Assembly: GCA_964658305.1 (NCBI GenBank)
Contig: OZ210885.1
Span: forward strand, 11,904,001 to 11,968,000
Direction of reading: 5' to 3'
Source of the DNA: Leptogorgia sarmentosa
Lineage: Eukaryota
Length of the DNA stretch: 64,000 bases
The stretch's first letter is position 1. Every line of letters begins with the position of its first letter. The notes under the pieces are model-generated. The model had not been told where the DNA came from. It did no database searches and saw nothing but the letters and a program-made list of their open reading frames with translations. The translations under genes and the position numbers were made by a program. This document shows, in pieces, positions 39,122-64,000 of the stretch.

Positions 39122-39270
39122 AACCTAACCATCAACGGCAATCGATTGCATATTCAAATCCAATCACACCCTACCCATATCCTAATCTTGACTCCAACTG
39201 ACTCATTCACAAATACGGGACAAACCTTGAAGCCAAATCCAATCCAAATTTCCCCCCATGATCCTTGGAC

Positions 39271-40230
39271 CATTGAACTAAAAATACCTGGAACGCTAAC
39301 TCCTATGATTTTCCCTATGATTGGCTGAAGCCGGCGCGCAAGAAAATTAACATTCAAAAGGACTGGGGAGAGTTCGAAGGAGCGAAAATTTTTTCACCCG
39401 GCTTGTTTTTGAGCAAAAATTGGCAAGAAATACACGGTTTTTAATAGAAAAACATCAATGTTTTGGGCTAACACAAGGTTGCCTGTTTAGATCCAACTGT
39501 TTTACGTCCATCTGCGGCAAAAAGTGAGGATTTTTATTTATATATTTCAAAAAAATGACAAATGTTTTGATGTGTCAAAAAAATTTGCTCTTCAACCGAC
39601 AAAAATATATATTATGAAACGTTTAAACAGTCCCAAACCTATTTTACAATAAACGCCAGGTATCCTTCTTGATTTTAAACGTTTTATTGCCGCTTTATAA
39701 CATTTAAAACATGAATAAATCGACGTTTTTCGAATGGTGTTATTTTCGGCTTCGCACGCAATTTGAGTACTTTGAATAAACATTGTTTTGGTCAATTTTT
39801 AAATGCATTTTTTTCGACTGTCAAACCTTCAATCTTCACGAAATTTCGCACACAGATGTATTTTACATAGGGTTAAATAATTCCTGAGGTTTGACGTCTT
39901 AGTTTCACCTCAGACTTTCAATAACTCAGAAAAAGTAACCAAAAACGCGCGGTTTTTTGGCTCGTTCATGTCAACAATGGATTTTTTTCTTATTTTTTTG
40001 CCAATTTGCGATTAGTTTATTTTGCGAATATAAAATTTAATTATCATGCTACTAATTTAAGTTAATTTTAGTGGCTAACTACTATTTAGGGGCAGGATTT
40101 ATGTGATTGAAAATGTGCTCATTTTACTACAAAAATTTAAAAAAGGACTGGGTCTACCTACAAAAACAGCTTCAAACACGGCTTCAACTTCCCCCCCTGA
40201 CTTAGCGTTCCAGGTATTTTTAGTTCAATG
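39271..40230. mobile_element. 960-bp MITE (P- or hAT-like) inserted in the first partial retroelement copy
   Basis: Perfect 29-bp TIR CATTGAACTAAAAATACCTGGAACGCTAA and an 8-bp TSD CCTTGGAC (39263-39270, 40231-40238). The site is empty in the later copies (46942-46949). Confidence 0.92.
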
Positions 40231-40365
40231 CCTTGGACCAACATCATGTCTGCTTCCACTTCCCCAACTCCACCTTCCCTCTCCTCTTTTCCCTCCACAT
40301 CTTATCCCAACAGGAAGCACCAGTCTTTACAAAATACAACTAGTCCCAACTACCGAAAACAAAGT

Positions 40366-41952
40366 CTAACCCCAACCCTAACCACTTCAAACCTTAATCC
40401 TTATGTACACCTTTGACCTAAACCCAACCCAATCCTTAACCTGACCATGACCACTTCAATCCCTAATCCTTATGTACAACTTTGACCTAAACCCCACCCA
40501 ATCCTTAACCTGACCATAACCACTTCAATCCCTAATCCTTATGTACACCTTTGACCTAAACCCAATCCTTAACCTGACCCTAACCAATCAAACCCTAATC
40601 CTTAAATACACCCTTGATCTAAACCCAACCCAATCCTTAACCTGACCCTAACCACTTCAAACCCTAATCCTTATCTACATATTTGACCTAAACCCAACCC
40701 AACCCTTAACCTGACCCTAACCACTTCAAACCCTAATCCTTATCTACATCCTTGACCTCAACCCCACCGAATCCTTAACCTGACCCTAACCACTTCAATC
40801 CTTATGTACACCTTTGACCTAAACCCAACCCAATCCTCAACCTGACCCTAACCACTTCAATCCCTAATCCTTGAATACACCACTTCAATCCCTAATCCTT
40901 AAATACACCCTTGATCTAAACCCCACCCAATCCTTAATGTGACCCTAACCACTTCAAACCCTAATCCTTATCTACCTATTTGACCTAAACCCAACCCAAC
41001 CCTTAACCTAACCCTAACCACTTCAATCCCTAATCCTTAAATACACCCTTGACTTAAACCCCACCGAATCCTTAACCTGACCCCAACCACTTCAACCCTT
41101 ATGTACACCTTTGATCTAAACCCAACCCAATCCTCAACCTGACCCTAACCACTTCAAGCCCTAATCCTTAAATACACCACTTCAATCCCTAATCCTTAAA
41201 TACACCCTTGATCTAAACCCCACCCAATCCTTAATGTGACCCTAACCACTTCAATCCCTAATCCTTAAATACACCACTTCAATCCCTAATCCTTAAATAC
41301 ACCTTTGACCTAAACCCCACCCAATCCTTAACCTGACCCTAACCACTTCAATCCCTAATCCTAAAATACACCCTTGACCTAAACCCCACCCAATCCTTAA
41401 CCTGACCCCAACCACTTCAAACCCTAATCCTTAAATACACCCTTGACCTAAACCCCACCGAATCCTTAACCTGACCCTAACCACTTGAATCCTTATGTAC
41501 ACCTTTGACCTAAACCCAACCCAATCCTTAACCTGACCCTAACCACTTCAAACGCTAATCCTTATGTACACCCTTGACCTAAACCCAACCCAATCCTTAA
41601 CCTGATCCTAACCACTTGAATCCTTATGTACACCTTTGACCTAAACCCAACCCAATCCTTAACCTGACCCTAACCACTTCAATCCCTAATCCTTATGTAC
41701 ACCCTTGACCTAAACCCAACCCAATCCTTAACCTGACCCTAACCACTTCAATCCCTAATCCAAAAATACACCCTTGACCTAAACCCCACCCAATCCTTAA
41801 CCTGACCCCAACCACTTCAAACCCTAATCCTTAAATACACCCTTGACCTAAACCCACCCAATCCTTAACCTGACCCTAGCCACTTCAATCCATAATCCTT
41901 AGGTACACCTTCGAGCTAAACCCAACCCAACCCTTTACCTGACCCCAACCAA
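40366..41952 (+). repeat. Telomere-like ~69-bp satellite, block 1
   Basis: Approximate consensus AACCACTTCAATCCCTAATCCTTATGTACACCTTTGACCTAAACCCAACCCAATCCTTAACCTGACCCT, made of CCCTAA variants. Confidence 0.95.
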
Positions 41953-42001
41953 TTCTGGCATGGAAGTCAACCCCAGGCTCTTAGAACCTATTCCCCGGCA
42001 C

Positions 42002-42065
42002 GTCTCCCATGGCAACGTTTACGAACTTGGATACGTCTCCATGGCAACGTCCCCGGTTTTTATAA
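42002..42065 (+). promoter_or_regulatory. Paired RFX X-box-like motifs followed by a TATA-like motif (repeated at +7352 and +14704)
   Basis: GTCTCCCATGGCAAC (42002-42016) and GTCTCCATGGCAAC (42035-42048) fit the GTNNCC-N(0-3)-RGYAAC X-box pattern; TTTTATAA follows. Confidence 0.55.
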
Positions 42066-42957
42066 TTCTCTTCGTCAAAAAAATTTTGTACGCAGAGTAC
42101 AGTCATTGACTGCCTTCGTAAGTTATCCATTTCTCACCTTAATATGTAATCCATGCCATTCCACTTCACCCAAACGCATTCACAAAAACTCACTCACCAT
42201 CTCCAACGGAATTTACTCATCTTCACAACTCGCAAAGACGAAAAAGTGAACCTGTTTTTTCGCGCCATTCAAAATTCAGTGTGAAACAAAACTTACATGC
42301 GAGCACGTCGTTCCAAGACCTGCTAGCAGGTTAGAAACGTGCTTTCCCAGTTATGCTTGGAGCCTGATGAAAACATAACTAATAGTTTTAAACGTAAAAC
42401 TAACAGGGACTAGGCCTGAGTGGCTCTACATTGGCAATCACTCTGGCCTTGGCATTCACACACAACACAAATGCACCCGGGTTTTGCCTACCTCATCCAG
42501 CAACCTCAACCACTACAACATCATGTCATTACTGATCATTCACTCATCTAATTTAATATTAATTCACTAACACTTCGTTCATCTAATCAAATCTCTTTTG
42601 GTTACAATATGATATGTTATAATATAATTACAAATCATTTGTGTCACCCAAAATCACTCCCTTAACAAAGGAACAGCCATTCAAACGTTTGTCCAGGATC
42701 CGAATACCTGTATCTAGACCCATTTTCTATTTCAAGCCGCCATAGACATGTTTATACACCCACAGGGAAAGGATAAGCATCATGAGATCTCCTGGTACAA
42801 AACAAATGGCTCTTTGGGTCACCAGTCATATCACATCTGTAAAACAAACAAAATAACACAGATTAATTATCATCACACCATTCACACCCTTCATTCATAT
42901 TTATCAAGCCTATAAAGCTTAAGCAACACTTTAGCTATTTTAACGCCATCCCAAGAC

Positions 42958-44052
42958 ATGGAGTCTGAAAGAGACATTTCAATGGAGGTAGACCAGACCT
43001 ACATAGGAGATCGAACCCTGGCCGCTCTGATTCCACCTATGAGCGACCAGGAGTTTGATCGACTCATCTCCAAGGAACCCATAGAGGAAGTACCTAGCCC
43101 CCCAGCGTCCGACACCCAACCCCAACCTTCCTCTCCCTTAACCCCCTTCACCTTAAACCTCCCCCCCAGTCCCCCCACACCCCAGCTAACCACCACCACC
43201 GATACCCACCCCCACACAAGCACATCCAACACTGACCCTACCCACCTAATACCTCAAACCACCACAGCACCTCCACCCACCACCACATCCACCTCCAACA
43301 CCACCCAAACCCACACAACACCCCAACCCACCATCACATCCACCCATTCCACACCACCAACCACCTCCACCACATCCACATCAACCATTCACTCCACCAC
43401 AACCACGTTCAACCAACTGGTTGAACTCCACCGAACCAAAACCCACCACACCCGACAAATCACCATCCTCAACAAGCATCTCCAAAATCACACAGCACCC
43501 AAAGGTCTCACCATCGACATGCAGCCCTGGGTCCAATTGTCTCAAACGCACAAGGAGGCGTGGGACGATGGCCTCAGGAACTGCATGTCCCATCTAACCA
43601 ACATCCTCCATCAACACCACACCCAACAACTGGAGAATGTAGAGCAACGCATCTCTACACTCTCCTCATCCATCGACAAGCACGTCCCAAAGGAAGTGTC
43701 CTCAACCATCCTCGACATCGCCACCCGCAAACCACCAAAACGCAAACCAAAACCACCATCCCACCAACCACGTAAACGCTTCAAACCACCCGCTACCACA
43801 ACGGATTTTCGGAAATGGCCACCACGTCCTCCACATCGCCACAACCCATCACCACCTCACCGTCACCGCCAACCATCAAACCAACCCCACCTACCACCAC
43901 CAACCACAAACCAACACCCGCCACCACGAACCACACCACAACACCTGACACCGGTGCCGAACGTGACACCGGAGTCAATCCGCCAACGCCTGGTGGGGAA
44001 GCAAAAACAGTTCTCCACCATCTTCAACATGTTCATGAAAGGAGGGCAATAA
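42958..44052 (+). CDS. PLE ORF1: Pro/Thr-rich region, Penelope/Neptune-type N-terminal helical domain, basic NLS-like patch
   Basis: 364 aa. APKGLTI..QP.....W...LRNCMSHLTNIL resembles the P(R/K)GL.I..P...W...L..C...L segment that precedes the RT in PLEs (recognised from memory). TATAAAG at 42911. Confidence 0.75.
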   Translation: MESERDISMEVDQTYIGDRTLAALIPPMSDQEFDRLISKEPIEEVPSPPASDTQPQPSSPLTPFTLNLPPSPPTPQLTTTTDTHPHTSTSNTDPTHLIPQTTTAPPPTTTSTSNTTQTHTTPQPTITSTHSTPPTTSTTSTSTIHSTTTTFNQLVELHRTKTHHTRQITILNKHLQNHTAPKGLTIDMQPWVQLSQTHKEAWDDGLRNCMSHLTNILHQHHTQQLENVEQRISTLSSSIDKHVPKEVSSTILDIATRKPPKRKPKPPSHQPRKRFKPPATTTDFRKWPPRPPHRHNPSPPHRHRQPSNQPHLPPPTTNQHPPPRTTPQHLTPVPNVTPESIRQRLVGKQKQFSTIFNMFMKGGQ

Positions 44053-45903
44053 AGTCCTTCTTTCATGAACACGCCCGAAGGAAAGCCAGCGTTAAAAATC
44101 ACGATAAAAAACACTATCGACAACAAATTGTGAATCACACCAACAATAACCTCAATGTCAACCTCACCCATCATAAATTAGAAGCACCACTCCAATCCAT
44201 GCTCTCCAAGGGCCTCAGATTCGTACCAACACCAGGCAATACTCGTCTGAAAACCATTGTTAATTCATTCAAACAATTCAGACGTTCCATGTACATACAT
44301 TACCATTTCAGGAACTCATCCAATGACCATCCAAATCCATTTAAAACCACTAGCACGTGGGAACCACCTCTGCCAGACAATCCAAATCTAATTTCATACA
44401 TTTGTTCTGTTGCAGAATCCATCAATCAGACCTTCAAACATAACCATCAAGACCACATCATCTCCAATCTAAACCAAGAGGAAATTAATCTTCTCAACAC
44501 ATATAATATTCATAATCAAAAATATGTCATTAAACCAGCAGACAAAGGAGGTGCCATTGTCATATGGTCCTCAGTCGACTATGAGAAAGAAGCACTCTCT
44601 CAACTTAATGACAACAAATACTATGAATATATACCAACCACACCCACTACAGTCATCTCCAAACAAACCCACAAAATCACTCAGTATGTCAGAAATCTCT
44701 ACAAATGTGGAGACATTGACTACAAAACACTACAACATCTGCTACCACCTTCACCACCACGTACACCAATATTTTACCTCCTACCCAAAATTCACAAACC
44801 TGGAAATCCAGGAAGACCAATCATATCAGGGTGTGATTCACCAACGGACAGGCTTTCCTCATTCATCGATATCCACATCAAACCATTTTGTGCTTCATTA
44901 CCATCCTACATCAAAGACACAAATCATTTTTTACAAACCATTTTCAACCTTGACACACCATTACCACCCAACACCATCCTTGCCACCATTGATGTCAAGT
45001 CCTTATACACCAACGTCCCTCACAACGAAGGGATCCAAGCTGTCCTGGAAACACTGGACACAAAACATGGACGTATGTGGCCACTCCGTAATGTCATACA
45101 CCAATTCCTTGAATACATACTCAAGGAAAACTATTTCACATTCAAGGATAAACTGTACCTCCAAAAACATGGCACAGCGATGGGCACCAAAATGGCTCCC
45201 TCCTTTGCCAACATATTCATGGGGGCACTTGAACAATCCATACTTTCATCGACACCAAACCAACTTGTTCCTCTCCTGTGGAAGAGATTCATAGATGATA
45301 TATTTCTAGTTTGGACACATGGTGAGGAATCATTCAATTCATTCATTCAACATCTCAATTCATTTCACTCCACCATAAAATTCGAAGTCACACACTCCAC
45401 CGAGAGTGTAAATCTACATCACACCACAACACACACTCCAAACCACCCTCTATATCAAACCAACCGACCGTATGCCACTTCTACATAACACTTCACACCA
45501 TCCGGACACCTGTAAAAAAAGCTTAATATACAGTCAAATGCTGCGATACAGGAGGATAATCACTGACGACAATGAGTTTCAACGAAAAGCTCAAAACTTG
45601 AGAGTAGCACTCATTGGAAGAGGTTACAAAAACAAAGATATCCTACCTCACATTGACAGGGCATCCACATACACACAATCACAATTACTTTCCAGCAGCT
45701 CATCCACAGACCATGCACGCACCATACCATTTGTCATACCATATCATCCAGAATTATCACCATTGCCTCACATCCTCAAACAACACTGGCAATACATTGA
45801 AAATGATCCTGTCTTATCACAGATATGGCCAAACCAACCGGTTATGGCTTATCAAAGACACAAGAACCTCAAAGAACACTTTGTCCGCACCAAATTCACC
45901 TAA
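43815..45903 (+). pseudogene. Penelope-like reverse transcriptase plus thumb, frameshifted at ~45412, no GIY-YIG
   Basis: LSKGLRFVPTP, KPADKGG, FYLLPKIHK, GRPIISG, IDVKSLYTN, GTAMGTKMAPSFANIFM, WKRFIDDIF. The thumb (TTLYIKPTD...SHHP...LRYRRI) continues in another frame and stops at KNLKEHFVRTKFT*. Confidence 0.9.
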
Positions 45904-47076
45904 CACACACACCACATACCACAGCGAAAGATATGACCCCATACCACACCACCACAAGCCACCAACACCGAACACCACCAGCGTGCAGACACCGAACAAA
46001 GATTCAAAATACCCAGAAGCCGTCACAACTCCAGCTTATGACAGATACTTACCAAAACATACTATGAAACCCAGATATCGGGCGGCAGGAACACCTCCAC
46101 ACAAACAACCCTAAGGCTGAAGACACATTCATTAAACAATATCATGGATTTGATAAAGACCCTCAGACCTCCTATTAACAACTCCATGGCCAAAACCATC
46201 CTTGCAACATCAACATGGACACCGTATATAAACTCATTAATGCATACATAATGGAACTTATATTCCACAGGCCCTCACACTGTATATGGCCTGTCGGGTT
46301 TCACCTGACTACCAGTCACCTCCTTTGTTTATGCTCAGTCGTGGCATGAACCCAGCGATCAGTAAATATATAATACTCTCAGGTCTATATCGACCCAATG
46401 TAACAGAAAAACATAATAGACTAAACAAACAACTACTAGATCAATATAATAAAACAACAAATGATTCTCACCCTTTGTTGAACATCACTCAAAATCACTT
46501 CCATCCAACAACCTCACATTCATCCACACACCACAAAATCGATCGATTCATCATCACACCAATTCAATATTCTCATCGCCACATCGTATTAATTAGAATT
46601 CCAACACTCCATCACATGTCGCAAAAAATCATCACACAATTATCCACCGCCATCCATCATCACCATCACTATCCACCAGGTTATATACGTTAATCCATCG
46701 CCATCCTCCATCATCACATCAGCCTCCACTTACCTAACCCTCTTTCCTCTTCTCCCAACATATCGAGACGTTCCAAGTGGAAACACCACACGACAAAACG
46801 GAACCTAACCATCAACGGCAATCGATTGCATATTCAAATCCAATCACACCCTACCCATATCCTAATCTTGACTCCAACCGACTCATTCACAAATACGGGA
46901 CAAACCTTGAAGCCAAATCCAATCCAAATTTTCCCCATGATCCTTGGACCAACATCATGTCTGCTTCCACTTCCCCAACTCCACCTTCCCTCTCCTCTTT
47001 TCCCTCCACATCTTATCCCAACAGGAAGCACCAGTCTTTACAAAATACAACTAGTCCCAACTACCGAAAACAAAGT

Positions 47077-49304
47077 CTAACCCCAACCCTAACCACTTCA
47101 AACCTTAATCCTTATGTACACCTTTGACCTAAACCCAACCCAATCCTTAACCTGACCATGACCACTTGAATCCCTAATCCTTATGTACACCTTTGACCTA
47201 AACCCAACCCAATCCTTAACCTGACCCTAACCACTTCAATCCCTATTCCTTATCTACATATTTGACCTAAACCCAACCCAACCCTTAACCTGACCCTAAC
47301 CACTTCAAACCTTAATCCTTATGTACACCTTTGACCTAAACCCAACCCAATCCTTAACCTGACCATAACCACTTCAATCCCTAATCCTTATGTACACCTT
47401 TGACCTAAACCCAACCCAACCCTTAACCTGACCCTAACCACTTCAATCCCTAATCCTGAAATACACCCTTGACCTCAACCCCACCCAATCCTTAACCTGA
47501 CCCTAACCACTTCAATCCCTAATCCTTAAATACATCCTTGACCTCAACCCCACTGAATCCTTAACCTGACCCTAACCACTTCAATCGTTATGTACACCTT
47601 TGACCTAAACCCAACCCAATCCTCAACCTGACCCTAACCACTTCAATCCCTAATCCTTGAATACACCACTTCAATCCCTAATCCTTAAATACACCCTTGA
47701 TCTAAACCCCACCCAATCCTTAATGTGACCCTAACCACTTCAATCCCTAATCCTTAAATACACCACTTCAATCCCTAATCCTTAAATATACCTTTGACCT
47801 AAACCCCACCCAATCCTTAACCTGACCCTAACCACTTCAATCCTTATGTACATAATTGACCTAAACCCCACCCAATCCTTAACCTGACCCTAACCAATCA
47901 AACCCTAATCCTTAAATACACCACTTCAATCCCTAATCCTTAAATACACCCTTGATCTAAACCCCACCCAATCCTTAACCTGACCCTAACCACTTCAATC
48001 CCTAATCCTTATGTACACCTTCGACCTAAACCCCACCCAATCCTTAACCTGACCCTAACCAATCAATCCCTAATCCTTATGTGCACTTTGACCCAAACCC
48101 AACCCAATCCTTAACCTGACCATAACAAATCCAATCCTTATGTACACATTTAACCAAAACCCAACCCAATCCTTAACCTGACCCTAACCACTTCAATCCC
48201 TAATCCTTATGTACACCCTTGACCTAAACCCCACCCAATCCTTAACCTGACCCTAACCAATCTGACCCTAATCATTATGTACACCCTTGACCTAAACCCA
48301 ACCCAATCCTTAACCTGACCCTAACCAATTCAAACCCTAATCCTTAAATACACCCTTGACCTAAACCCCATCGAATCCTTAACCTGACCCTAACCACTTC
48401 AAACCCTAATCCTTAAATACACCCTTGACCTAAACCCCACCGAATCCTCAACCTGACCCTAACCACTTCAAACCCTAATCCTTAAATACACCCTTGACCT
48501 AGACCCCACCGAATCCTTAACCTGACCCTAACCACTTCAACCCTTATGTACACCTTCGACCTAAACCCAACCCAATCCTCAACCTGACCCTAAGCACTTC
48601 AATCCCTAATCCTTAAATACACCACTTCAATCCCTAATCCTTAAATATACCTTTGACGTAAACCCAACCCAATCCTTAACCTGACCCTAACCACTTCAAT
48701 CCCTAATCCTAAAATACACCCTTGACCTAGACCCCACCCAATCCTTAACCTGACCCAACCACTTCAATCCCTAATCCTTAAATACACCTTTGACCTAAAC
48801 CCACCCAATCCTTAACCTGACCCTAACCACTTCAAACCCTAATCCTTAAATACACCTTTGACCTAAACCCACCCAATCCTTAACCTGACCCCAACCACTT
48901 CAAACCCTAATCCTTAAATACACCTTTGACCTAAACCCAACCCAATCCTTAACCTGACCCTAACCACTTGAATCCTTATGTACACCTTTGACCTAAACCC
49001 AACCCAATCCTTAACCTGACCCTAACCACTTCAATCCCTAATCCTTATGTACACCCTTGACCTAAACCCAACCCAATCCTTAACCTGACCCTAACCACTT
49101 CAATCCCTAATCCAAAAATACACCCTTGACCTAAACCCCACCCAATCCTTAACCTGACCCCAACCACTTCAAACCCTAATCCTTAAATACACCCTTGACC
49201 TAAACCCACCCAATCCTTAACCTGACCCTAGCCACTTCAATCCATAATCCTTAGGTACACCTTCGAGCTAAACCCAACCCAACCCTTTACCTGACCCAAA
49301 CCAA
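47077..49304 (+). repeat. Telomere-like ~69-bp satellite, block 2
   Basis: Same monomer, ~2.23 kb. Confidence 0.95.
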
Positions 49305-50309
49305 TTCTGGCATGGAAGTCAACCCCAGGCTCTTAGAACCTATTCCCCGGCACGTCTCCCATGGCAACGTTTACGAACTTGGATACGTCTCCATGGCAAC
49401 GTCCCCGGTTTTTATAATTCTCTCCGTCAAAAAAATTTTGTACGCAGAGTACAGTCATTGGCTGCCTTCGTAAGTTATCCATTTCTCACCTTAATATGTA
49501 ATCCATGCCATTCCACTTCACCCAAACGCATTCACAAAAACTCACTCACCATCTCCAACGGAATTTACTCATCTTCACAACTCGCAAAGACGAAAAAGTG
49601 AACCTGTTTTTTCGCGCCATTCAAAATTCAGTGTGAAACAAAACTTACATGCGAGCACGTCGTTCCAAGACCTGCTAGCAGGTTAGAAACGTGCTTTCCC
49701 AGTTATGCTTGGAGCCTGATGAAAACATAACTAATAGTTTTAAACGTAAAACTAACAGGGACTAGGCCTGAGTGGCTCTACATTGGCAATCACTCTGGCC
49801 TTGGCATTCACACACAACACAAATGCACCCGGGTTTTGCCTACCTCATCCAGCAACCTCAACCACTACAACATCATGTCATTACTGATCATTCACTCATC
49901 TAATTTAATATTAATTCACTAACACTTCGTTCATCTAATCAAATCTCTTTTGGTTACAATATGATATGTTATAATATAATTACAAATCATTTGTGTCACC
50001 CAAAATCACTCCCTTAACAAAGGAACAGCCATTCAAACGTTTGTCCAGGATCCGAATACCTGTATCTAGACCCATTTTCTATTTCAAGCCGCCATAGACA
50101 TGTTTATACACCCACAGGGAAAGGATAAGCATCATGAGATCTCCTGGTACAAAACAAATGGCTCTTTGGGTCACCAGTCATATCACATCTGTAAAACAAA
50201 CAAAATAACACAGATTAATTATCATCACACCATTCACACCCTTCATTCATATTTATCAAGCCTATAAAGCTTAAGCAACACTTTAGCTATTTTAACGCCA
50301 TCCCAAGAC

Positions 50310-51404: not shown

Positions 51405-53255
51405 AGTCCTTCTTTCATGAACACGCCCGAAGGAAAGCCAGCGTTAAAAATCACGATAAAAAACACTATCGACAACAAATTGTGAATCACACCAACAATA
51501 ACCTCAATGTCAACCTCACCCATCATAAATTAGAAGCACCACTCCAATCCATGCTCTCCAAGGGCCTCAGATTCGTACCAACACCAGGCAATACTCGTCT
51601 GAAAACCATTGTTAATTCATTCAAACAATTCAGACGTTCCATGTACATACATTACCATTTCAGGAACTCATCCAATGACCATCCAAATCCATTTAAAACC
51701 ACTAGCACGTGGGAACCACCTCTGCCAGACAATCCAAATCTAATTTCATACATTTGTTCTGTTGCAGAATCCATCAATCAGACCTTCAAACATAACCATC
51801 AAGACCACATCATCTCCAATCTAAACCAAGAGGAAATTAATCTTCTCAACACATATAATATTCATAATCAAAAATATGTCATTAAACCAGCAGACAAAGG
51901 AGGTGCCATTGTCATATGGTCCTCAGTCGACTATGAGAAAGAAGCACTCTCTCAACTTAATGACAACAAATACTATGAATATATACCAACCACACCCACT
52001 ACAGTCATCTCCAAACAAACCCACAAAATCACTCAGTATGTCAGAAATCTCTACAAATGTGGAGACATTGACTACAAAACACTACAACATCTGCTACCAC
52101 CTTCACCACCACGTACACCAATATTTTACCTCCTACCCAAAATTCACAAACCTGGAAATCCAGGAAGACCAATCATATCAGGGTGTGATTCACCAACGGA
52201 CAGGCTTTCCTCATTCATCGATATCCACATCAAACCATTTTGTGCTTCATTACCATCCTACATCAAAGACACAAATCATTTTTTACAAACCATTTTCAAC
52301 CTTGACACACCATTACCACCCAACACCATCCTTGCCACCATTGATGTCAAGTCCTTATACACCAACGTCCCTCACAACGAAGGGATCCAAGCTGTCCTGG
52401 AAACACTGGACACAAAACATGGACGTATGTGGCCACTCCGTAATGTCATACACCAATTCCTTGAATACATACTCAAGGAAAACTATTTCACATTCAAGGA
52501 TAAACTGTACCTCCAAAAACATGGCACAGCGATGGGCACCAAAATGGCTCCCTCCTTTGCCAACATATTCATGGGGGCACTTGAACAATCCATACTTTCA
52601 TCGACACCAAACCAACTTGTTCCTCTCCTGTGGAAGAGATTCATAGATGATATATTTCTAGTTTGGACACATGGTGAGGAATCATTCAATTCATTCATTC
52701 AACATCTCAATTCATTTCACTCCACCATAAAATTCGAAGTCACACACTCCACCGAGAGTGTAAATCTACATCACACCACAACACACACTCCAAACCACCC
52801 TCTATATCAAACCAACCGACCGTATGCCACTTCTACATAACACTTCACACCATCCGGACACCTGTAAAAAAAGCTTAATATACAGTCAAATGCTGCGATA
52901 CAGGAGGATAATCACTGACGACAATGAGTTTCAACGAAAAGCTCAAAACTTGAGAGTAGCACTCATTGGAAGAGGTTACAAAAACAAAGATATCCTACCT
53001 CACATTGACAGGGCATCCACATACACACAATCACAATTACTTTCCAGCAGCTCATCCACAGACCATGCACGCACCATACCATTTGTCATACCATATCATC
53101 CAGAATTATCACCATTGCCTCACATCCTCAAACAACACTGGCAATACATTGAAAATGATCCTGTCTTATCACAGATATGGCCAAACCAACCGGTTATGGC
53201 TTATCAAAGACACAAGAACCTCAAAGAACACTTTGTCCGCACCAAATTCACCTAA
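51167..53255 (+). pseudogene. Penelope-like RT, copy 2, same frameshift
   Basis: Translation identical to copy 1. Confidence 0.9.
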
Positions 53256-54428
53256 CACACACACCACATACCACAGCGAAAGATATGACCCCATACCACA
53301 CCACCACAAGCCACCAACACCGAACACCACCAGCGTGCAGACACCGAACAAAGATTCAAAATACCCAGAAGCCGTCACAACTCCAGCTTATGACAGATAC
53401 TTACCAAAACATACTATGAAACCCAGATATCGGGCGGCAGGAACACCTCCACACAAACAACCCTAAGGCTGAAGACACATTCATTAAACAATATCATGGA
53501 TTTGATAAAGACCCTCAGACCTCCTATTAACAACTCCATGGCCAAAACCATCCTTGCAACATCAACATGGACACCGTATATAAACTCATTAATGCATACA
53601 TAATGGAACTTATATTCCACAGGCCCTCACACTGTATATGGCCTGTCGGGTTTCACCTGACTACCAGTCACCTCCTTTGTTTATGCTCAGTCGTGGCATG
53701 AACCCAGCGATCAGTAAATATATAATACTCTCAGGTCTATATCGACCCAATGTAACAGAAAAACATAATAGACTAAACAAACAACTACTAGATCAATATA
53801 ATAAAACAACAAATGATTCTCACCCTTTGTTGAACATCACTCAAAATCACTTCCATCCAACAACCTCACATTCATCCACACACCACAAAATCGATCGATT
53901 CATCATCACACCAATTCAATATTCTCATCGCCACATCGTATTAATTAGAATTCCAACACTCCATCACATGTCGCAAAAAATCATCACACAATTATCCACC
54001 GCCATCCATCATCACCATCACTATCCACCAGGTTATATACGTTAATCCATCGCCATCCTCCATCATCACATCAGCCTCCACTTACCTAACCCTCTTTCCT
54101 CTTCTCCCAACATATCGAGACGTTCCAAGTGGAAACACCACACGACAAAACGGAACCTAACCATCAACGGCAATCGATTGCATATTCAAATCCAATCACA
54201 CCCTACCCATATCCTAATCTTGACTCCAACCGACTCATTCACAAATACGGGACAAACCTTGAAGCCAAATCCAATCCAAATTTTCCCCATGATCCTTGGA
54301 CCAACATCATGTCTGCTTCCACTTCCCCAACTCCACCTTCCCTCTCCTCTTTTCCCTCCACATCTTATCCCAACAGGAAGCACCAGTCTTTACAAAATAC
54401 AACTAGTCCCAACTACCGAAAACAAAGT

Positions 54429-56656
54429 CTAACCCCAACCCTAACCACTTCAAACCTTAATCCTTATGTACACCTTTGACCTAAACCCAACCCAATCCTT
54501 AACCTGACCATGACCACTTGAATCCCTAATCCTTATGTACACCTTTGACCTAAACCCAACCCAATCCTTAACCTGACCCTAACCACTTCAATCCCTATTC
54601 CTTATCTACATATTTGACCTAAACCCAACCCAACCCTTAACCTGACCCTAACCACTTCAAACCTTAATCCTTATGTACACCTTTGACCTAAACCCAACCC
54701 AATCCTTAACCTGACCATAACCACTTCAATCCCTAATCCTTATGTACACCTTTGACCTAAACCCAACCCAACCCTTAACCTGACCCTAACCACTTCAATC
54801 CCTAATCCTGAAATACACCCTTGACCTCAACCCCACCCAATCCTTAACCTGACCCTAACCACTTCAATCCCTAATCCTTAAATACATCCTTGACCTCAAC
54901 CCCACTGAATCCTTAACCTGACCCTAACCACTTCAATCGTTATGTACACCTTTGACCTAAACCCAACCCAATCCTCAACCTGACCCTAACCACTTCAATC
55001 CCTAATCCTTGAATACACCACTTCAATCCCTAATCCTTAAATACACCCTTGATCTAAACCCCACCCAATCCTTAATGTGACCCTAACCACTTCAATCCCT
55101 AATCCTTAAATACACCACTTCAATCCCTAATCCTTAAATATACCTTTGACCTAAACCCCACCCAATCCTTAACCTGACCCTAACCACTTCAATCCTTATG
55201 TACATAATTGACCTAAACCCCACCCAATCCTTAACCTGACCCTAACCAATCAAACCCTAATCCTTAAATACACCACTTCAATCCCTAATCCTTAAATACA
55301 CCCTTGATCTAAACCCCACCCAATCCTTAACCTGACCCTAACCACTTCAATCCCTAATCCTTATGTACACCTTCGACCTAAACCCCACCCAATCCTTAAC
55401 CTGACCCTAACCAATCAATCCCTAATCCTTATGTGCACTTTGACCCAAACCCAACCCAATCCTTAACCTGACCATAACAAATCCAATCCTTATGTACACA
55501 TTTAACCAAAACCCAACCCAATCCTTAACCTGACCCTAACCACTTCAATCCCTAATCCTTATGTACACCCTTGACCTAAACCCCACCCAATCCTTAACCT
55601 GACCCTAACCAATCTGACCCTAATCATTATGTACACCCTTGACCTAAACCCAACCCAATCCTTAACCTGACCCTAACCAATTCAAACCCTAATCCTTAAA
55701 TACACCCTTGACCTAAACCCCATCGAATCCTTAACCTGACCCTAACCACTTCAAACCCTAATCCTTAAATACACCCTTGACCTAAACCCCACCGAATCCT
55801 CAACCTGACCCTAACCACTTCAAACCCTAATCCTTAAATACACCCTTGACCTAGACCCCACCGAATCCTTAACCTGACCCTAACCACTTCAACCCTTATG
55901 TACACCTTCGACCTAAACCCAACCCAATCCTCAACCTGACCCTAAGCACTTCAATCCCTAATCCTTAAATACACCACTTCAATCCCTAATCCTTAAATAT
56001 ACCTTTGACGTAAACCCAACCCAATCCTTAACCTGACCCTAACCACTTCAATCCCTAATCCTAAAATACACCCTTGACCTAGACCCCACCCAATCCTTAA
56101 CCTGACCCAACCACTTCAATCCCTAATCCTTAAATACACCTTTGACCTAAACCCACCCAATCCTTAACCTGACCCTAACCACTTCAAACCCTAATCCTTA
56201 AATACACCTTTGACCTAAACCCACCCAATCCTTAACCTGACCCCAACCACTTCAAACCCTAATCCTTAAATACACCTTTGACCTAAACCCAACCCAATCC
56301 TTAACCTGACCCTAACCACTTGAATCCTTATGTACACCTTTGACCTAAACCCAACCCAATCCTTAACCTGACCCTAACCACTTCAATCCCTAATCCTTAT
56401 GTACACCCTTGACCTAAACCCAACCCAATCCTTAACCTGACCCTAACCACTTCAATCCCTAATCCAAAAATACACCCTTGACCTAAACCCCACCCAATCC
56501 TTAACCTGACCCCAACCACTTCAAACCCTAATCCTTAAATACACCCTTGACCTAAACCCACCCAATCCTTAACCTGACCCTAGCCACTTCAATCCATAAT
56601 CCTTAGGTACACCTTCGAGCTAAACCCAACCCAACCCTTTACCTGACCCAAACCAA
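54429..56656 (+). repeat. Telomere-like ~69-bp satellite, block 3
   Basis: Same length as block 2 and apparently the same order of variants. Confidence 0.95.
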
Positions 56657-57661
56657 TTCTGGCATGGAAGTCAACCCCAGGCTCTTAGAACCTATTCCCC
56701 GGCACGTCTCCCATGGCAACGTTTACGAACTTGGATACGTCTCCATGGCAACGTCCCCGGTTTTTATAATTCTCTCCGTCAAAAAAATTTTGTACGCAGA
56801 GTACAGTCATTGGCTGCCTTCGTAAGTTATCCATTTCTCACCTTAATATGTAATCCATGCCATTCCACTTCACCCAAACGCATTCACAAAAACTCACTCA
56901 CCATCTCCAACGGAATTTACTCATCTTCACAACTCGCAAAGACGAAAAAGTGAACCTGTTTTTTCGCGCCATTCAAAATTCAGTGTGAAACAAAACTTAC
57001 ATGCGAGCACGTCGTTCCAAGACCTGCTAGCAGGTTAGAAACGTGCTTTCCCAGTTATGCTTGGAGCCTGATGAAAACATAACTAATAGTTTTAAACGTA
57101 AAACTAACAGGGACTAGGCCTGAGTGGCTCTACATTGGCAATCACTCTGGCCTTGGCATTCACACACAACACAAATGCACCCGGGTTTTGCCTACCTCAT
57201 CCAGCAACCTCAACCACTACAACATCATGTCATTACTGATCATTCACTCATCTAATTTAATATTAATTCACTAACACTTCGTTCATCTAATCAAATCTCT
57301 TTTGGTTACAATATGATATGTTATAATATAATTACAAATCATTTGTGTCACCCAAAATCACTCCCTTAACAAAGGAACAGCCATTCAAACGTTTGTCCAG
57401 GATCCGAATACCTGTATCTAGACCCATTTTCTATTTCAAGCCGCCATAGACATGTTTATACACCCACAGGGAAAGGATAAGCATCATGAGATCTCCTGGT
57501 ACAAAACAAATGGCTCTTTGGGTCACCAGTCATATCACATCTGTAAAACAAACAAAATAACACAGATTAATTATCATCACACCATTCACACCCTTCATTC
57601 ATATTTATCAAGCCTATAAAGCTTAAGCAACACTTTAGCTATTTTAACGCCATCCCAAGAC

Positions 57662-58756
57662 ATGGAGTCTGAAAGAGACATTTCAATGGAGGTAGACCAG
57701 ACCTACATAGGAGATCGAACCCTGGCCGCTCTGATTCCACCTATGAGCGACCAGGAGTTTGATCGACTCATCTCCAAGGAACCCATAGAGGAAGTACCTA
57801 GCCCCCCAGCGTCCGACACCCAACCCCAACCTTCCTCTCCCTTAACCCCCTTCACCTTAAACCTCCCCCCCAGTCCCCCCACACCCCAGCTAACCACCAC
57901 CACCGATACCCACCCCCACACAAGCACATCCAACACTGACCCTACCCACCTAATACCTCAAACCACCACAGCACCTCCACCCACCACCACATCCACCTCC
58001 AACACCACCCAAACCCACACAACACCCCAACCCACCATCACATCCACCCATTCCACACCACCAACCACCTCCACCACATCCACATCAACCATTCACTCCA
58101 CCACAACCACGTTCAACCAACTGGTTGAACTCCACCGAACCAAAACCCACCACACCCGACAAATCACCATCCTCAACAAGCATCTCCAAAATCACACAGC
58201 ACCCAAAGGTCTCACCATCGACATGCAGCCCTGGGTCCAATTGTCTCAAACGCACAAGGAGGCGTGGGACGATGGCCTCAGGAACTGCATGTCCCATCTA
58301 ACCAACATCCTCCATCAACACCACACCCAACAACTGGAGAATGTAGAGCAACGCATCTCTACACTCTCCTCATCCATCGACAAGCACGTCCCAAAGGAAG
58401 TGTCCTCAACCATCCTCGACATCGCCACCCGCAAACCACCAAAACGCAAACCAAAACCACCATCCCACCAACCACGTAAACGCTTCAAACCACCCGCTAC
58501 CACAACGGATTTTCGGAAATGGCCACCACGTCCTCCACATCGCCACAACCCATCACCACCTCACCGTCACCGCCAACCATCAAACCAACCCCACCTACCA
58601 CCACCAACCACAAACCAACACCCGCCACCACGAACCACACCACAACACCTGACACCGGTGCCGAACGTGACACCGGAGTCAATCCGCCAACGCCTGGTGG
58701 GGAAGCAAAAACAGTTCTCCACCATCTTCAACATGTTCATGAAAGGAGGGCAATAA
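57662..58756 (+). CDS. PLE ORF1, copy 3
   Basis: Translation identical to 42958-44052. Confidence 0.75.
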   Translation: MESERDISMEVDQTYIGDRTLAALIPPMSDQEFDRLISKEPIEEVPSPPASDTQPQPSSPLTPFTLNLPPSPPTPQLTTTTDTHPHTSTSNTDPTHLIPQTTTAPPPTTTSTSNTTQTHTTPQPTITSTHSTPPTTSTTSTSTIHSTTTTFNQLVELHRTKTHHTRQITILNKHLQNHTAPKGLTIDMQPWVQLSQTHKEAWDDGLRNCMSHLTNILHQHHTQQLENVEQRISTLSSSIDKHVPKEVSSTILDIATRKPPKRKPKPPSHQPRKRFKPPATTTDFRKWPPRPPHRHNPSPPHRHRQPSNQPHLPPPTTNQHPPPRTTPQHLTPVPNVTPESIRQRLVGKQKQFSTIFNMFMKGGQ

Positions 58757-60607
58757 AGTCCTTCTTTCATGAACACGCCCGAAGGAAAGCCAGCGTTAAA
58801 AATCACGATAAAAAACACTATCGACAACAAATTGTGAATCACACCAACAATAACCTCAATGTCAACCTCACCCATCATAAATTAGAAGCACCACTCCAAT
58901 CCATGCTCTCCAAGGGCCTCAGATTCGTACCAACACCAGGCAATACTCGTCTGAAAACCATTGTTAATTCATTCAAACAATTCAGACGTTCCATGTACAT
59001 ACATTACCATTTCAGGAACTCATCCAATGACCATCCAAATCCATTTAAAACCACTAGCACGTGGGAACCACCTCTGCCAGACAATCCAAATCTAATTTCA
59101 TACATTTGTTCTGTTGCAGAATCCATCAATCAGACCTTCAAACATAACCATCAAGACCACATCATCTCCAATCTAAACCAAGAGGAAATTAATCTTCTCA
59201 ACACATATAATATTCATAATCAAAAATATGTCATTAAACCAGCAGACAAAGGAGGTGCCATTGTCATATGGTCCTCAGTCGACTATGAGAAAGAAGCACT
59301 CTCTCAACTTAATGACAACAAATACTATGAATATATACCAACCACACCCACTACAGTCATCTCCAAACAAACCCACAAAATCACTCAGTATGTCAGAAAT
59401 CTCTACAAATGTGGAGACATTGACTACAAAACACTACAACATCTGCTACCACCTTCACCACCACGTACACCAATATTTTACCTCCTACCCAAAATTCACA
59501 AACCTGGAAATCCAGGAAGACCAATCATATCAGGGTGTGATTCACCAACGGACAGGCTTTCCTCATTCATCGATATCCACATCAAACCATTTTGTGCTTC
59601 ATTACCATCCTACATCAAAGACACAAATCATTTTTTACAAACCATTTTCAACCTTGACACACCATTACCACCCAACACCATCCTTGCCACCATTGATGTC
59701 AAGTCCTTATACACCAACGTCCCTCACAACGAAGGGATCCAAGCTGTCCTGGAAACACTGGACACAAAACATGGACGTATGTGGCCACTCCGTAATGTCA
59801 TACACCAATTCCTTGAATACATACTCAAGGAAAACTATTTCACATTCAAGGATAAACTGTACCTCCAAAAACATGGCACAGCGATGGGCACCAAAATGGC
59901 TCCCTCCTTTGCCAACATATTCATGGGGGCACTTGAACAATCCATACTTTCATCGACACCAAACCAACTTGTTCCTCTCCTGTGGAAGAGATTCATAGAT
60001 GATATATTTCTAGTTTGGACACATGGTGAGGAATCATTCAATTCATTCATTCAACATCTCAATTCATTTCACTCCACCATAAAATTCGAAGTCACACACT
60101 CCACCGAGAGTGTAAATCTACATCACACCACAACACACACTCCAAACCACCCTCTATATCAAACCAACCGACCGTATGCCACTTCTACATAACACTTCAC
60201 ACCATCCGGACACCTGTAAAAAAAGCTTAATATACAGTCAAATGCTGCGATACAGGAGGATAATCACTGACGACAATGAGTTTCAACGAAAAGCTCAAAA
60301 CTTGAGAGTAGCACTCATTGGAAGAGGTTACAAAAACAAAGATATCCTACCTCACATTGACAGGGCATCCACATACACACAATCACAATTACTTTCCAGC
60401 AGCTCATCCACAGACCATGCACGCACCATACCATTTGTCATACCATATCATCCAGAATTATCACCATTGCCTCACATCCTCAAACAACACTGGCAATACA
60501 TTGAAAATGATCCTGTCTTATCACAGATATGGCCAAACCAACCGGTTATGGCTTATCAAAGACACAAGAACCTCAAAGAACACTTTGTCCGCACCAAATT
60601 CACCTAA
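58519..60607 (+). pseudogene. Penelope-like RT, copy 3, same frameshift
   Basis: Translation identical to copy 1. Confidence 0.9.
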
Positions 60608-61780
60608 CACACACACCACATACCACAGCGAAAGATATGACCCCATACCACACCACCACAAGCCACCAACACCGAACACCACCAGCGTGCAGACACCGAA
60701 CAAAGATTCAAAATACCCAGAAGCCGTCACAACTCCAGCTTATGACAGATACTTACCAAAACATACTATGAAACCCAGATATCGGGCGGCAGGAACACCT
60801 CCACACAAACAACCCTAAGGCTGAAGACACATTCATTAAACAATATCATGGATTTGATAAAGACCCTCAGACCTCCTATTAACAACTCCATGGCCAAAAC
60901 CATCCTTGCAACATCAACATGGACACCGTATATAAACTCATTAATGCATACATAATGGAACTTATATTCCACAGGCCCTCACACTGTATATGGCCTGTCG
61001 GGTTTCACCTGACTACCAGTCACCTCCTTTGTTTATGCTCAGTCGTGGCATGAACCCAGCGATCAGTAAATATATAATACTCTCAGGTCTATATCGACCC
61101 AATGTAACAGAAAAACATAATAGACTAAACAAACAACTACTAGATCAATATAATAAAACAACAAATGATTCTCACCCTTTGTTGAACATCACTCAAAATC
61201 ACTTCCATCCAACAACCTCACATTCATCCACACACCACAAAATCGATCGATTCATCATCACACCAATTCAATATTCTCATCGCCACATCGTATTAATTAG
61301 AATTCCAACACTCCATCACATGTCGCAAAAAATCATCACACAATTATCCACCGCCATCCATCATCACCATCACTATCCACCAGGTTATATACGTTAATCC
61401 ATCGCCATCCTCCATCATCACATCAGCCTCCACTTACCTAACCCTCTTTCCTCTTCTCCCAACATATCGAGACGTTCCAAGTGGAAACACCACACGACAA
61501 AACGGAACCTAACCATCAACGGCAATCGATTGCATATTCAAATCCAATCACACCCTACCCATATCCTAATCTTGACTCCAACCGACTCATTCACAAATAC
61601 GGGACAAACCTTGAAGCCAAATCCAATCCAAATTTTCCCCATGATCCTTGGACCAACATCATGTCTGCTTCCACTTCCCCAACTCCACCTTCCCTCTCCT
61701 CTTTTCCCTCCACATCTTATCCCAACAGGAAGCACCAGTCTTTACAAAATACAACTAGTCCCAACTACCGAAAACAAAGT

Positions 61781-64000
61781 CTAACCCCAACCCTAACCAC
61801 TTCAAACCTTAATCCTTATGTACACCTTTGACCTAAACCCAACCCAATCCTTAACCTGACCATGACCACTTCAAACCCTAATCCTTATGTACACCTTTGA
61901 CCTAAACCCAACCCAATCCTTAACCTGACCCTAACCACTTCAATCCCTATTCCTTATCTACATATTTGACCTAAACCCAACCCAACCCTTAACCTGACCC
62001 TAACCACTTCAAACCTTAATCCTTATGTACACCTTTGACCTAAACCCAACCCAATCCTTAACCTGACCATAACCACTTCAATCCCTAATCCTTATGTACA
62101 CCTTTGACCTAAACCCAACCCAACCCTTAACCTGACCCTAACCACTTCAATCCCTAATCCTTAAATACACCCTTGACCTTGACCTCAACCCCACCCAATC
62201 CTTAACCTGACCCTAACCACTTCAATCCCTAATCCTTAAATACATCCTTGACCTCAACCCCACCGAATCCTTAACCTGACCCTAACCACTTCAATCGTTA
62301 TGTACACCTTTGACCTAAACCCAACCCAATCCTCAACCTGACCCTAACCACTTCAATCCCTAATCCTTGAATACACCACTTCAATCCCTAATCCTTAAAT
62401 ACACCCTTGATCTAAACCCCACCTAATCCTTAATGTGACCCTAACCACTTCAATCCCTAATCCTTAAATACACCACTTCAATCCCTAATCCTTAAATATA
62501 CCTTTGACCTAAACCCCACCAAATCCTTAACCTGACCCTAACCACTTCAATCCTTATGTACATAATTGACCTAAACCCCACCCAATCCTTAACCTGACCC
62601 TAACCAATCAAACCCTAATCCTTAAATACACCACTTCAATCCCTAATCCTTAAATACACCCTTGATCTAAACCCCACCCAATCCTTAACCTGACCCTAAC
62701 CACTTCAATCCCTAATCCTTATGTACACCTTCGACCTAAACCCCACCCAATCCTTAACCTGACCCTAACCAATCAATCCCTAATCCTTATGTGCACTTTG
62801 ACCTAAACCCAACCCAATCCTTAACCTGACCATAACAAATCCAATCCTTATGTACACATTTAACCAAAACCCAACCCAATCCTTAACCTGACCCTAACCA
62901 CTTCAAACCTTATCCTTATGTACAACTTTGACCTTAACCCAACCCAATCCTTAACCTGACCCTAACCACTTCAATCCCTAATCCTTATGTACACCCTTGA
63001 CCTAAACCCCACCCAATCCTTAACCTGACCCTAACCAATCTAACCCTAATCCTTATGTACACCCTTGACCTAAACCCAACCCAATCCTTAACCTGACCCT
63101 AACCACTTCAACCCTAATCCTTAAATACACCCTTGACCTAAACCCCACCGAATCCTTAACCTGACCCTAACCACTTCAAACCCTAATCCTTAAATACACC
63201 CTTGACCTAAACCCCACCGAATCCTTAACCTGACCCTAACCACTTCAAACCCTAATCCTTAAATACACCCTTGACCTAAACCCCACCGAATCCTTAACCT
63301 GACCCTAACCACTTCAACCCTTATGTACACCTTCGACCTAAACCCAACCCAATCCTCAACCTGACCCTAAGCACTTCAATCCCTAATCCTTAAATACACC
63401 ACTTCAATCCCTAATCCTTAAATATACCTTTGACGTAAACCCAACCCAATCCTTAACCTGACCCTAACCACTTCAATCCCTAATCCTAAAATACACCCTT
63501 GACCTAGACCCCACCCAATCCTTAACCTGACCCCAACCACTTCAATCCCTAATCCTTAAATACACCTTTGACCTAAACCCACCCAATCCTTAACCTGACC
63601 CTAACCACTTCAAACCCTAATCCTTAAATACACCTTTGACCTAAACCCACCCAATCCTTAACCTGACCCCAACCACTTCAAACCCTAATCCTTAAATACA
63701 CCTTTGACCTAAACCCAACCCAATCCTTAACCTGACCCTAACCACTTGAATCCTTATGTACACCTTTGACCTAAACCCAACCCAATCCTTAACCTGACCA
63801 TGACCACTTCAATCCCTAATCCTTATGTACACCTTTGACCTAAACCCAACCCAATCCTTAACCTGACCATAACCACTTCAAACCCTAATCCTTATCTACA
63901 TATTTGACCTAAACACAACCCAACCCTTAACCTGACCCTAACCACTTCAATCCCTAATCCTTATGTACACCTTTGACCTCAACCCCACCGAATCCTTAAC
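61781..64000 (+). repeat. Telomere-like ~69-bp satellite, block 4 (incomplete at the window end)
   Basis: Same monomer, with local indels relative to blocks 2 and 3. Confidence 0.95.

Follow-up and report, generated by a model that had tools for sequence, protein, structure and literature searches.

A head-to-tail array of nuclease-less Penelope-like elements with telomere-like spacers in Leptogorgia sarmentosa

Penelope-like elements (PLEs) without a nuclease are the retroelements closest to telomerase, and those of the Athena group also have an upstream open reading frame (ORF), ORF1. The nuclease-less PLEs recorded so far comprise Athena, Coprina and sporadic losses, and a 2026 preprint lists only Athena and Coprina as nuclease-less clades. 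Athena is reported to be rotifer-specific, to form the most basal PLE clade and, its embedded telomere repeats excepted, to be free of G-rich motifs with strand asymmetry (PMC10088271). Nuclease-less animal families within or next to Neptune, for which MjPLE01 of the kuruma shrimp is cited, are described as families that 'occasionally emerge' (PMC8557442), and PLE termini have been linked to tandem repeats (PMC8557442; bioRxiv 10.64898/2026.07.22.740005). Here we describe a stretch of 64,000 nt from Leptogorgia sarmentosa (contig OZ210885.1, positions 11,904,001 to 11,968,000), referred to in its full length as the window. From position 39121 to its end, the window consists of a head-to-tail, same-strand array of a PLE that encodes ORF1 and a reverse transcriptase (RT), has no recognizable nuclease and alternates with a telomere-like satellite. 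With somewhat better than even confidence, we read this locus as a gene-side array of a nuclease-less two-ORF PLE that was enlarged by tandem duplication at the DNA level, and whose family would prime reverse transcription on free 3' DNA ends.

The reverse transcriptase and its nuclease-less relatives

The RT frame of the element matches Pfam RVT_1 (E 1.9e-12), contains the KPADKGG ('DKG') motif and ends in ...KNLKEHFVRTKFT with a stop at 45903, five residues past the motif NLKEHFV. A hidden Markov model (HMM), trained on the sequences that follow the RT in 23 nuclease-bearing relatives, detected no GIY-YIG nuclease in the six frames of the unit (best E = 13) and recovered two control loci with E values of 2.5e-55 and 1.3e-41. 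With the same model, the sister locus L059 gave a best E of 1.8, and no nuclease remnant was found in five more distant loci (L001-L005), again with positive controls. The window RT likewise shows neither the C-terminal CX2-5CxxC linker nor the GIY-YIG domain with CCHH that characterize Neptune and Nematis. An earlier note, written from the letters of the window alone, had described a 7352-bp head-to-tail unit of a nuclease-less PLE, which self-comparison, the RVT_1 match and the anatomy of the unit confirm, and had seen no nuclease remnant, which the HMM bears out. A GIY-YIG domain in sister copies, named there as evidence that would overturn this view, was found neither in L059 and L001-L005 nor in the 16 listed database matches with at least 65% identity.

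In all three copies of the window, a 17-nt deletion at about position 45412 shifts the RT frame and removes a conserved motif; these copies are most likely inert passengers. In the sequencing runs X1, X3, X4, X10 and X5, the sole contig seen over 45412 carries the 17 nt that the window lacks, and one contig of run X14 covers 45138-45483 without them. Both forms of the RT thus exist in nature, and the uninterrupted form prevails in the contigs seen.

The missing nuclease is not a peculiarity of this locus. A database search with the RT yielded 2957 matches at E <= 0.001, the best 120 of which were listed. PF00078/PF28514/PF26215 are found in these relatives, with PF01541 in addition in 15 of the 120. 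These 15 are 37-44% identical to the window RT, whereas PF01541 occurs in none of the 16 listed matches at 65% identity or more. A close fused form was not found among 90 longer proteins (976-2785 amino acids), none of which exceeded 40% identity over most of the query. Inspection of 13 relatives showed that the C-terminal NLK(D/E)xxV motif is reached in ten, nine of which stop 5-26 residues past it; the tenth, from Nematostella, continues for 79 low-complexity residues.

For a first tree, 69 of the 120 listed matches were classified, while 51 were dropped (shorter than 480 residues, motif pattern unmatched, or tail of intermediate length); the window was added as a further row and all rows were cut at the motif. 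The stop just after NLK(D/E)xxV is common to 46 of the 69 classified relatives, and a single branch with full support (100) in the Shimodaira-Hasegawa-like approximate likelihood ratio test (SH-aLRT) parts 47 nuclease-less rows, including the window, from 23 nuclease-bearing ones. In a second tree, of 62 rows, ORFs from fetched loci were added and a distinct lineage with a nuclease served as the root. Here, the 34 nuclease-less rows make up a clade (99), with 22 nuclease-bearing rows as its sister (96). Since the nuclease-less proteins are poorer in G-coded residues (share of GAVDE residues 0.180 versus 0.223; Mann-Whitney p = 2.5e-8), the alignment was recoded to Dayhoff-6, upon which all 34 nuclease-less rows still fall into one clade without any intruder, at a support of 85.7. 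The CX2-5CxxC linker is present in 22 of the 23 nuclease-bearing relatives; it has been described in Neptune and Nematis and as absent from Penelope/Poseidon (Craig et al. 2021, PMC8557442). As the stop is shared by 46 of 69 relatives that form one clade with the window, the nuclease loss is, by these trees, old and clade-wide, and lies next to Neptune/Nematis-type elements. The independent loss in the window element that the earlier note had proposed is therefore not upheld.

The members of this clade that can be named come from the sea anemones Exaiptasia and Nematostella (RT) and from Paramuricea (ORF1), and the nearest Atlas cluster is commonest in Cnidaria. This large, deep and diverse nuclease-less clade, with hundreds of database members, thus probably belongs to cnidarians. 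Our literature search, which extended to sources other than subscription journals and Repbase, retrieved no description of nuclease-less PLEs in cnidarians, and the supplement of PMC8557442, in which the families belong to Naiad, Chlamys and Hydra alone, yielded no nuclease-less family from cnidarians for the terms searched. The distant nuclease-less members L001-L005, which are of metagenomic origin and 39-52% identical, show the same stop past the motif and, in the majority of the 400-nt blocks inspected, a G share of just 8-13%; an upstream ORF1 was seen in L001 and L005. Three other metagenome PLE copies (L007, L008 and L017) stop four residues past the C-terminal motif and have a weak strand bias. 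The position of L007 is outside the nuclease-less clade, and it may represent a separate nuclease loss or contain an intron.

Array, spacer and transcripts

Self-comparison of the window revealed a tandem period of 7352 bp, and sister units were compared at this offset. The array opens with a 5'-truncated stub, followed by three units (Table 1), each composed of a 1.0-kb leader, ORF1, the overlapping RT frame, a 1.18-kb non-coding tail and a 2.2-kb satellite of 69-bp repeats. The three full element bodies (41956-46941, 49308-54293 and 56660-61645) are accompanied by four satellite blocks (A-D), the last of which is clipped at the window end. Units 1 and 2 mismatch at only 3 of 7352 positions (41946, 42072 and 42109), bodies 2 and 3 are free of differences, and all bodies taken together differ at 0-2 positions. 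The copies, satellites B and C included, are 99.96-100% identical, and perfect identity spans more than 12 kb. The junction from satellite to leader is alike in all three units. At the left edge of the array (39121), the stub represents a copy cut at unit position 46801, which retains about 290 bp of tail plus satellite A and is interrupted by a 958-bp insertion. The satellites are less uniform than the bodies: blocks B and C are 100% identical over 2366 bp (46942-49307 for B), whereas D is 93.5% and A at most 87% identical to B.

Table 1. Positions of the array components in the window
Feature	Positions	Strand	Remarks
Truncated leftmost copy, first part	39121..39272	+	Corresponds to unit positions 46801-46951; 98% identity, 152 nt
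MITE-like (miniature inverted-repeat transposable element-like) insertion within the stub, 958 bp	39273..40230	none	Terminal inverted repeats of ~27 bp, target duplication of ~10 bp; not in units 1-3
Truncated copy, remaining tail	40231..40374	+	40231-40400 versus 46942-47111: 100% identity
Satellite block A, 69-bp units	40375..41955	+	Tandem Repeats Finder (TRF) period 69, 23.2 copies
Leader, unit 1	41956..42957	+	Conserved core 42290-42510
ORF1, unit 1, 364 residues	42958..44052	+	T/P-rich disordered arms flank a predicted helical-hairpin core
ORF2, Penelope-like RT and thumb, unit 1	43815..45903	+	Frame broken at ~45412; natural stop after ...KNLKEHFVRTKFT
Non-coding A/C-rich tail, unit 1	45904..47085	+	No nuclease remnant (HMM on whole unit)
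Satellite block B, 69-bp units	47086..49307	+	50 CCCTAA over 46942-49307; G 4%
Unit 2: leader, ORF1, RT, tail, satellite C	49308..56659	+	100% at offset 7352 save 3 positions
Unit 3, satellite D clipped at window end	56660..64000	+	Body equals unit 2 body
Spliced antisense RNA over element body	42836..47135	-	Introns appear as CT..AC on the + strand

The satellite had been described in the earlier note as degenerate and (CCCTAA)-based. Its telomere-like character on the sense C strand is confirmed, but its organization is that of a 69-bp minisatellite rich in CCCTAA, without hexamer-array structure. CCCTAA occurs 33-50 times per block, whereas shuffled versions of block B contain it 3.6 times on average and 10 times at most; TTAGGG was found in none of the blocks. 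When aligned to (CCCTAA)n, the 69-mer scores 23.5, as against 6.9 +/- 3.6 for 200 shuffles (maximum 25; about 1 in 200 scored better). Judged by its letters, the 69-bp repeat is telomere-like beyond base composition, yet it is no telomere repeat array.

The strand bias of the array is strong. From about 40 kb onward, C greatly exceeds G and A exceeds T on the plus strand, with a GC skew of -0.29 to -0.81 over 40-64 kb, whereas the left 39 kb are balanced (skew about 0); the A/C-rich, G-poor sense strand noted earlier is thus borne out. G makes up about 10-12% of the element's sense strand and 4% of the satellite, and this poverty continues unbroken from the RT via the tail to the satellite. 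Within codons, each of the three positions is depleted (9-19% G). A milder depletion (11-23%) is seen in the controls with a nuclease, which indicates that the window element exaggerates a general PLE trend. Strong strand asymmetry was measured in seven members of the nuclease-less clade.

A second array of the family, L059, was retrieved in a scan of bacterial and archaeal genome records. It is a 12,090-bp contig mis-binned in a bacterial metagenome-assembled genome (MAG), and its protein is 88% identical to P0001. The source, G001, is a 17.8-Mb record labelled as a Metamycoplasmataceae MAG that holds eukaryotic retroelement contigs, that is, host contamination; when 179 genomes of its family were searched, G001 alone gave a match. 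The units of L059 follow one another head to tail every 6144-6150 bp or so, match each other at 99.86-99.9% and differ by a 312-bp indel. Both of its RT ORFs are open (at least 658 and 699 residues) and end in ...KNLKEHFVRTKFTNPSSSQQHTTP followed by a stop, and ORF1 is open as well (363 residues). Between the tail and the next leader (3130-4110), L059 carries a G-poor tract of about 1 kb full of degenerate C-strand telomere repeats, including a TRF-called run of (TAACCC) type (about 75 nt, 79% matches). Short pieces of this tract match the 69-bp units of the window at 75-84%. The 69-bp repeat as such is absent from L059, and a query of satellite plus tail found no match in the 17.8-Mb source. 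For the earlier note, sister copies without the satellite would speak against its reading; L059 bears degenerate repeats of (CCCTAA)n type in the corresponding spacer, and the 69-bp satellite itself proved not to be shared. The telomere-like spacer and the tandem form recur in both loci of the family that were inspected. Because a telomere-like tract occupies the same spacer position in L059, this comparison supports a telomere-repeat origin of the spacer, of which the 69-bp minisatellite looks like a local remodelling. In viral contigs, neither a relative of the RT nor a match to a 23-nt satellite word was found.

Contigs from sequencing runs indicate that the element is transcribed. Runs X4 and X5, which belong to one study, were taken as RNA solely because of their splice-like joints; X3 and X10 are labelled as DNA. 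Inside the element, CT..AC joints were counted four times in X4 and six times in X5, at the same places, and not at all in X3 and X10. On the minus strand, the six introns have good donors and polypyrimidine-AG acceptors, and X5 shows a GT..AG joint in the flank besides. With this minus-strand splice consensus and the absence of the joints from DNA-labelled runs, we conclude that the element is transcribed antisense and spliced. Spliced antisense transcripts are also a property of TART and HeT-A. One X5 contig (record 29) joins satellite A to the leader (41733-42351), and one X4 contig of 665 nt joins the tail to the first satellite units (46472-47135) with 0 mismatches. Contigs of X4 and X5 cover the satellite 0-12 times versus 18-158 times for the body, and those of X3 cover the satellite 49-353 times, although contig depth is no measure of expression. 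In X3, the flank bin with the least coverage has a depth of 16 and the body one of 19-54, which does not give a copy number. Loose ends of contigs show that same-species sister copies diverge right after the RT stop and rejoin at 46574, so that 45907-46574 appears as a variable tail module.

The AlphaFold2 model of ORF1 (mean predicted local distance difference test score, pLDDT, 54.7) contains two helices, at residues 141-177 and 196-256, with pLDDT 70-92 and a remainder below 50. This predicted helical hairpin core (141-256) would fit a gag-like or coiled-coil role; Pfam returned only sub-threshold matches for ORF1. ORF2 overlaps ORF1 in the -1 frame by 196-277 nt in both families (window 43776-44052; L059 6029-6224). 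No slippery heptamer was found in this overlap, and the inspected overlapping part of the ORF2 frame of L059 contains no ATG. Upstream of ORF1, a core of the leader (42290-42510; L059 4509-4760) is 85-95% identical between the two families versus 78-83% in the coding region, has a normal G content and folds modestly (z = -2.4). It may act as a promoter or RNA signal. Nested palindromes and a CUGAUGA box were observed in this core, which had no Rfam match.

The left flank of the array carries ordinary genes, and the window stops inside the array. Exon-like ORFs at 20544-24708 on the minus strand, with NB-ARC, APAF-1 helical, winged-helix and NPHP3_N domains, belong to a host gene of APAF1/NLR type, and a 436-residue ORF at 2981-4291, which combines DUF3504 with part of a phage integrase and a QRICH1 domain, resembles a tyrosine-recombinase gene derived from a Crypton. 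The segment 36670-39121 has the deepest contig coverage of the flank and a GT..AG intron at 37132-37494 (+) in the RNA-like runs. Its last 250 bp or so (38867-39121) are a high-copy repeat that stops exactly where the array starts. Pieces of the insertion within the stub (39273-40230) were covered in all eight sequencing runs compared, which points to a MITE-like family.

Origin of the array

The favoured reading, a gene-side array enlarged by duplication of DNA, explains the layout in two steps. Partial tandems with a 5'-truncated upstream copy are the norm among PLEs (PMC8557442), and the window starts with such a truncated stub; the seed was therefore probably an ordinary partial tandem, a truncated copy upstream of a full one, that would have been inserted at an internal break. 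Whole units of 7352 bp would then probably have multiplied as units or satellite blocks underwent unequal exchange. The full-length units, their identical junctions, the shared 17-nt deletion and the identity of satellites B and C argue for such whole-unit duplication, and not for separate events of reverse transcription. Carried in the RNA, the C-strand-like spacer would help it to pair with the G-rich overhangs of telomeres or with 3' ends exposed elsewhere, in analogy to Athena and Coprina.

The earlier note had gone further and envisaged a self-propagating system of RT and satellite, with the RNA satellite annealing to TTAGGG or satellite 3' ends. On this view, the array would be built unit by unit through retrotransposition onto a chromosome or satellite 3' end, and the element would replace or extend the telomere. 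This view draws on the absence of a nuclease, on the C-strand telomere-like spacer on the sense strand of both the window and L059, on the head-to-tail form of both inspected loci, on the strong A/C richness of the sense strand and on the existence of intact RT copies (five contigs with the 17 nt in five runs, and the open ORFs of L059). We nevertheless consider it quite unlikely, and it is not borne out by the array itself. The units are nearly identical, down to a dead RT and a base-identical satellite of 2366 bp, only the leftmost one is 5'-truncated, the three satellite-to-leader junctions are alike, and no true telomere repeats lie between units. Moreover, growth from the genic flank would require the reverse orientation, as the earlier note itself had cautioned and as the 5' ends facing that flank confirm, and the 69-bp satellite is absent from L059 and was not found in its 17.8-Mb source. 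A single retrotransposition at an internal break, during which the RT, on reaching the 5' end of an RNA, several times switched to the 3' end of another and produced a concatemer ending in the 5'-truncated copy on the left, is a serious rival, even if we regard it as unlikely. Partial or multicopy head-to-tail tandems are the form in which PLEs usually insert (PMC8557442). The truncated copy is found at the 5' side, at which synthesis of the cDNA would stop, the junctions are identical, and the RNA contig of X5 (record 29) spans the junction of satellite and leader. However, identical bodies occur together with satellites A and D that deviate from B and C in length and, by 6.5-15%, in sequence, which unequal exchange or conversion would explain better than a single template, and the MITE insertion in the stub indicates some age, yet the bodies differ at only 0-2 positions.

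Two further explanations were considered. A dead PLE next to an unrelated satellite could have been caught in a segmental tandem duplication, the satellite being no part of the element; the RT is indeed broken in all copies, the units are near-identical and the 69-bp repeat was not found in the sister family. We hold this to be very unlikely, since L059 has a telomere-like G-poor tract at the same position between tail and leader, pieces of which match the 69-bp units at 75-84%, the poverty of G is continuous from RT to tail to satellite, and even the leftmost truncated copy carries tail plus satellite. It is barely credible, finally, that assembly or polishing of a repeat created a false number of units or made them falsely identical. 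Perfect identity over more than 12 kb would invite this suspicion, as would the 17 nt that the window lacks and that the sole contig over 45412 contains in five runs. Yet the joins between satellite and leader and between tail and satellite occur in contigs of other samples, the X14 contig (45138-45483) shows the deleted form outside this assembly, and L059, from another assembly, is the same kind of array.

Several points weigh against the reading of a duplicated array whose family primes on free DNA ends. Most of them concern the priming, which we infer for telomeric or broken ends by analogy. The sense 5' ends face the genic flank, where end-addition would put 3' ends, tandem CCCTAACCCTAA does not occur in the satellite blocks, and no junction contains perfect telomere repeats. 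The 5'-truncated copies at 43315 and 44649, seen in contigs of X4 and X5, adjoin ordinary AT-rich DNA. Unlike in Athena and Coprina, a core-motif scan found no hammerhead in L059, L001, L003 and L005; the same scan gave well-paired cores at recurring positions in L013, L024 and L025, which are controls with a nuclease, a single unpaired match within the RT-coding part of the window unit and another match, antisense, in L002. In Rfam searches, no hammerhead was detected in the unit, L059 and L001-L005 (E <= 1) or in the leader (E <= 10), a weak test in which 11 control loci were also negative. Missing hammerheads and non-telomeric junctions together weaken the case for end-priming. As to the array, the identical units could also be explained by one reverse-transcription event with template jumps, or by over-expansion or homogenization by the assembler. 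As to the family, two of its loci were inspected, one of them (L059) without flanks, and the trees are built on unnamed database relatives, outside of which the named Athena, Coprina and Neptune references stand. The nuclease-less clade could in part be a composition artefact, as several rows fail the composition test and its support falls to 85.7 upon recoding.

Significance and comparison with known systems

Compared with the literature found, this study adds the probable cnidarian range of a large nuclease-less PLE clade, an extreme strand bias, an apparently telomere-derived spacer of kilobase size that turned into a minisatellite, and a spliced antisense RNA. Should a reference phylogeny confirm the placement, the animal record of telomere-type PLEs would become wider. 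If the origin of the spacer is confirmed as well, a telomere-derived tract would have become a new 69-bp minisatellite within a retroelement. Our data furthermore offer a testable link between nuclease loss, strand bias and array formation. A bolder picture, which we put forward tentatively and judge to be unlikely in its entirety, is that of a large, old, undescribed nuclease-less PLE clade of marine invertebrates including cnidarians, which has dispensed with the hammerhead, is extremely poor in G on the sense strand and forms head-to-tail arrays with telomere-derived C-strand spacers. Such elements might be a telomerase-related counterpart of HeT-A/TART, present side by side with telomerase. 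They would give rise to new telomere-like minisatellites and be kept in check by spliced antisense transcripts.

In its structure, as deduced from the sequence, the window element is an endonuclease-deficient PLE. Its nearest nuclease-bearing relatives (37-44% identity) are of the Neptune/Nematis type and share with it the RT, the thumb and an NLKDxLV motif before the linker; they differ in that they run on for 115-163 residues with linker and GIY-YIG domain, have one ORF instead of two and show a weaker strand bias. MjPLE01, likened here through the description in the citing paper and not by sequence, resembles the window element as a nuclease-less, Neptune-related animal family. The array also recalls the partial tandems (pseudo-LTRs) of other PLEs, in which a truncated upstream copy is followed by full copies (PMC8557442). 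Non-LTR retrozymes are different, as they have a type I hammerhead in each repeat; no hammerhead core was found in the 69-bp units or elsewhere in the satellite on either strand.

With HeT-A, TART and TAHRE of Drosophila, the window element has in common the head-to-tail arrays and the G-poor sense strand (PMC10088271). These are, however, long interspersed nuclear elements (LINEs) of the Jockey clade with poly(A), in a host without telomerase, and they occupy true chromosome ends with their 3' ends toward the centromere. Centromere-ward 3' ends and variable 5' truncation, the array traits of HeT-A/TART, are not seen here, where units 1-3 are full-length and the 5' ends face the genic flank.

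The two described nuclease-less clades are closest in kind. Athena and the Terminons of bdelloid rotifers have a nuclease-less RT, stretches of telomere repeats and 5'-truncated copies (PMC5537684, PMC8557442). The window element resembles them in its RT and its truncated copy, and its telomere-like spacer may correspond to their repeats; it differs in that it is strand-biased throughout. Coprina, known from fungi, protists and plants and compared here by description and not by RT phylogeny, differs in host range, as the window clade is probably cnidarian, and in that no hammerhead core was found in the latter. The window repeats are degenerate and of kilobase scale, versus short perfect stretches in Coprina, only about 10-12% of the sense strand is G, and the copy lies beside genes. 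Coprina resembles the window element in that it has no GIY-YIG domain and forms same-direction arrays, and probably also in the C-strand telomere-like sequence of its 3' or spacer region. In published trees, it groups weakly with Neptune (PMC8557442), just as the window clade is sister to relatives with a linker of Neptune/Nematis type.

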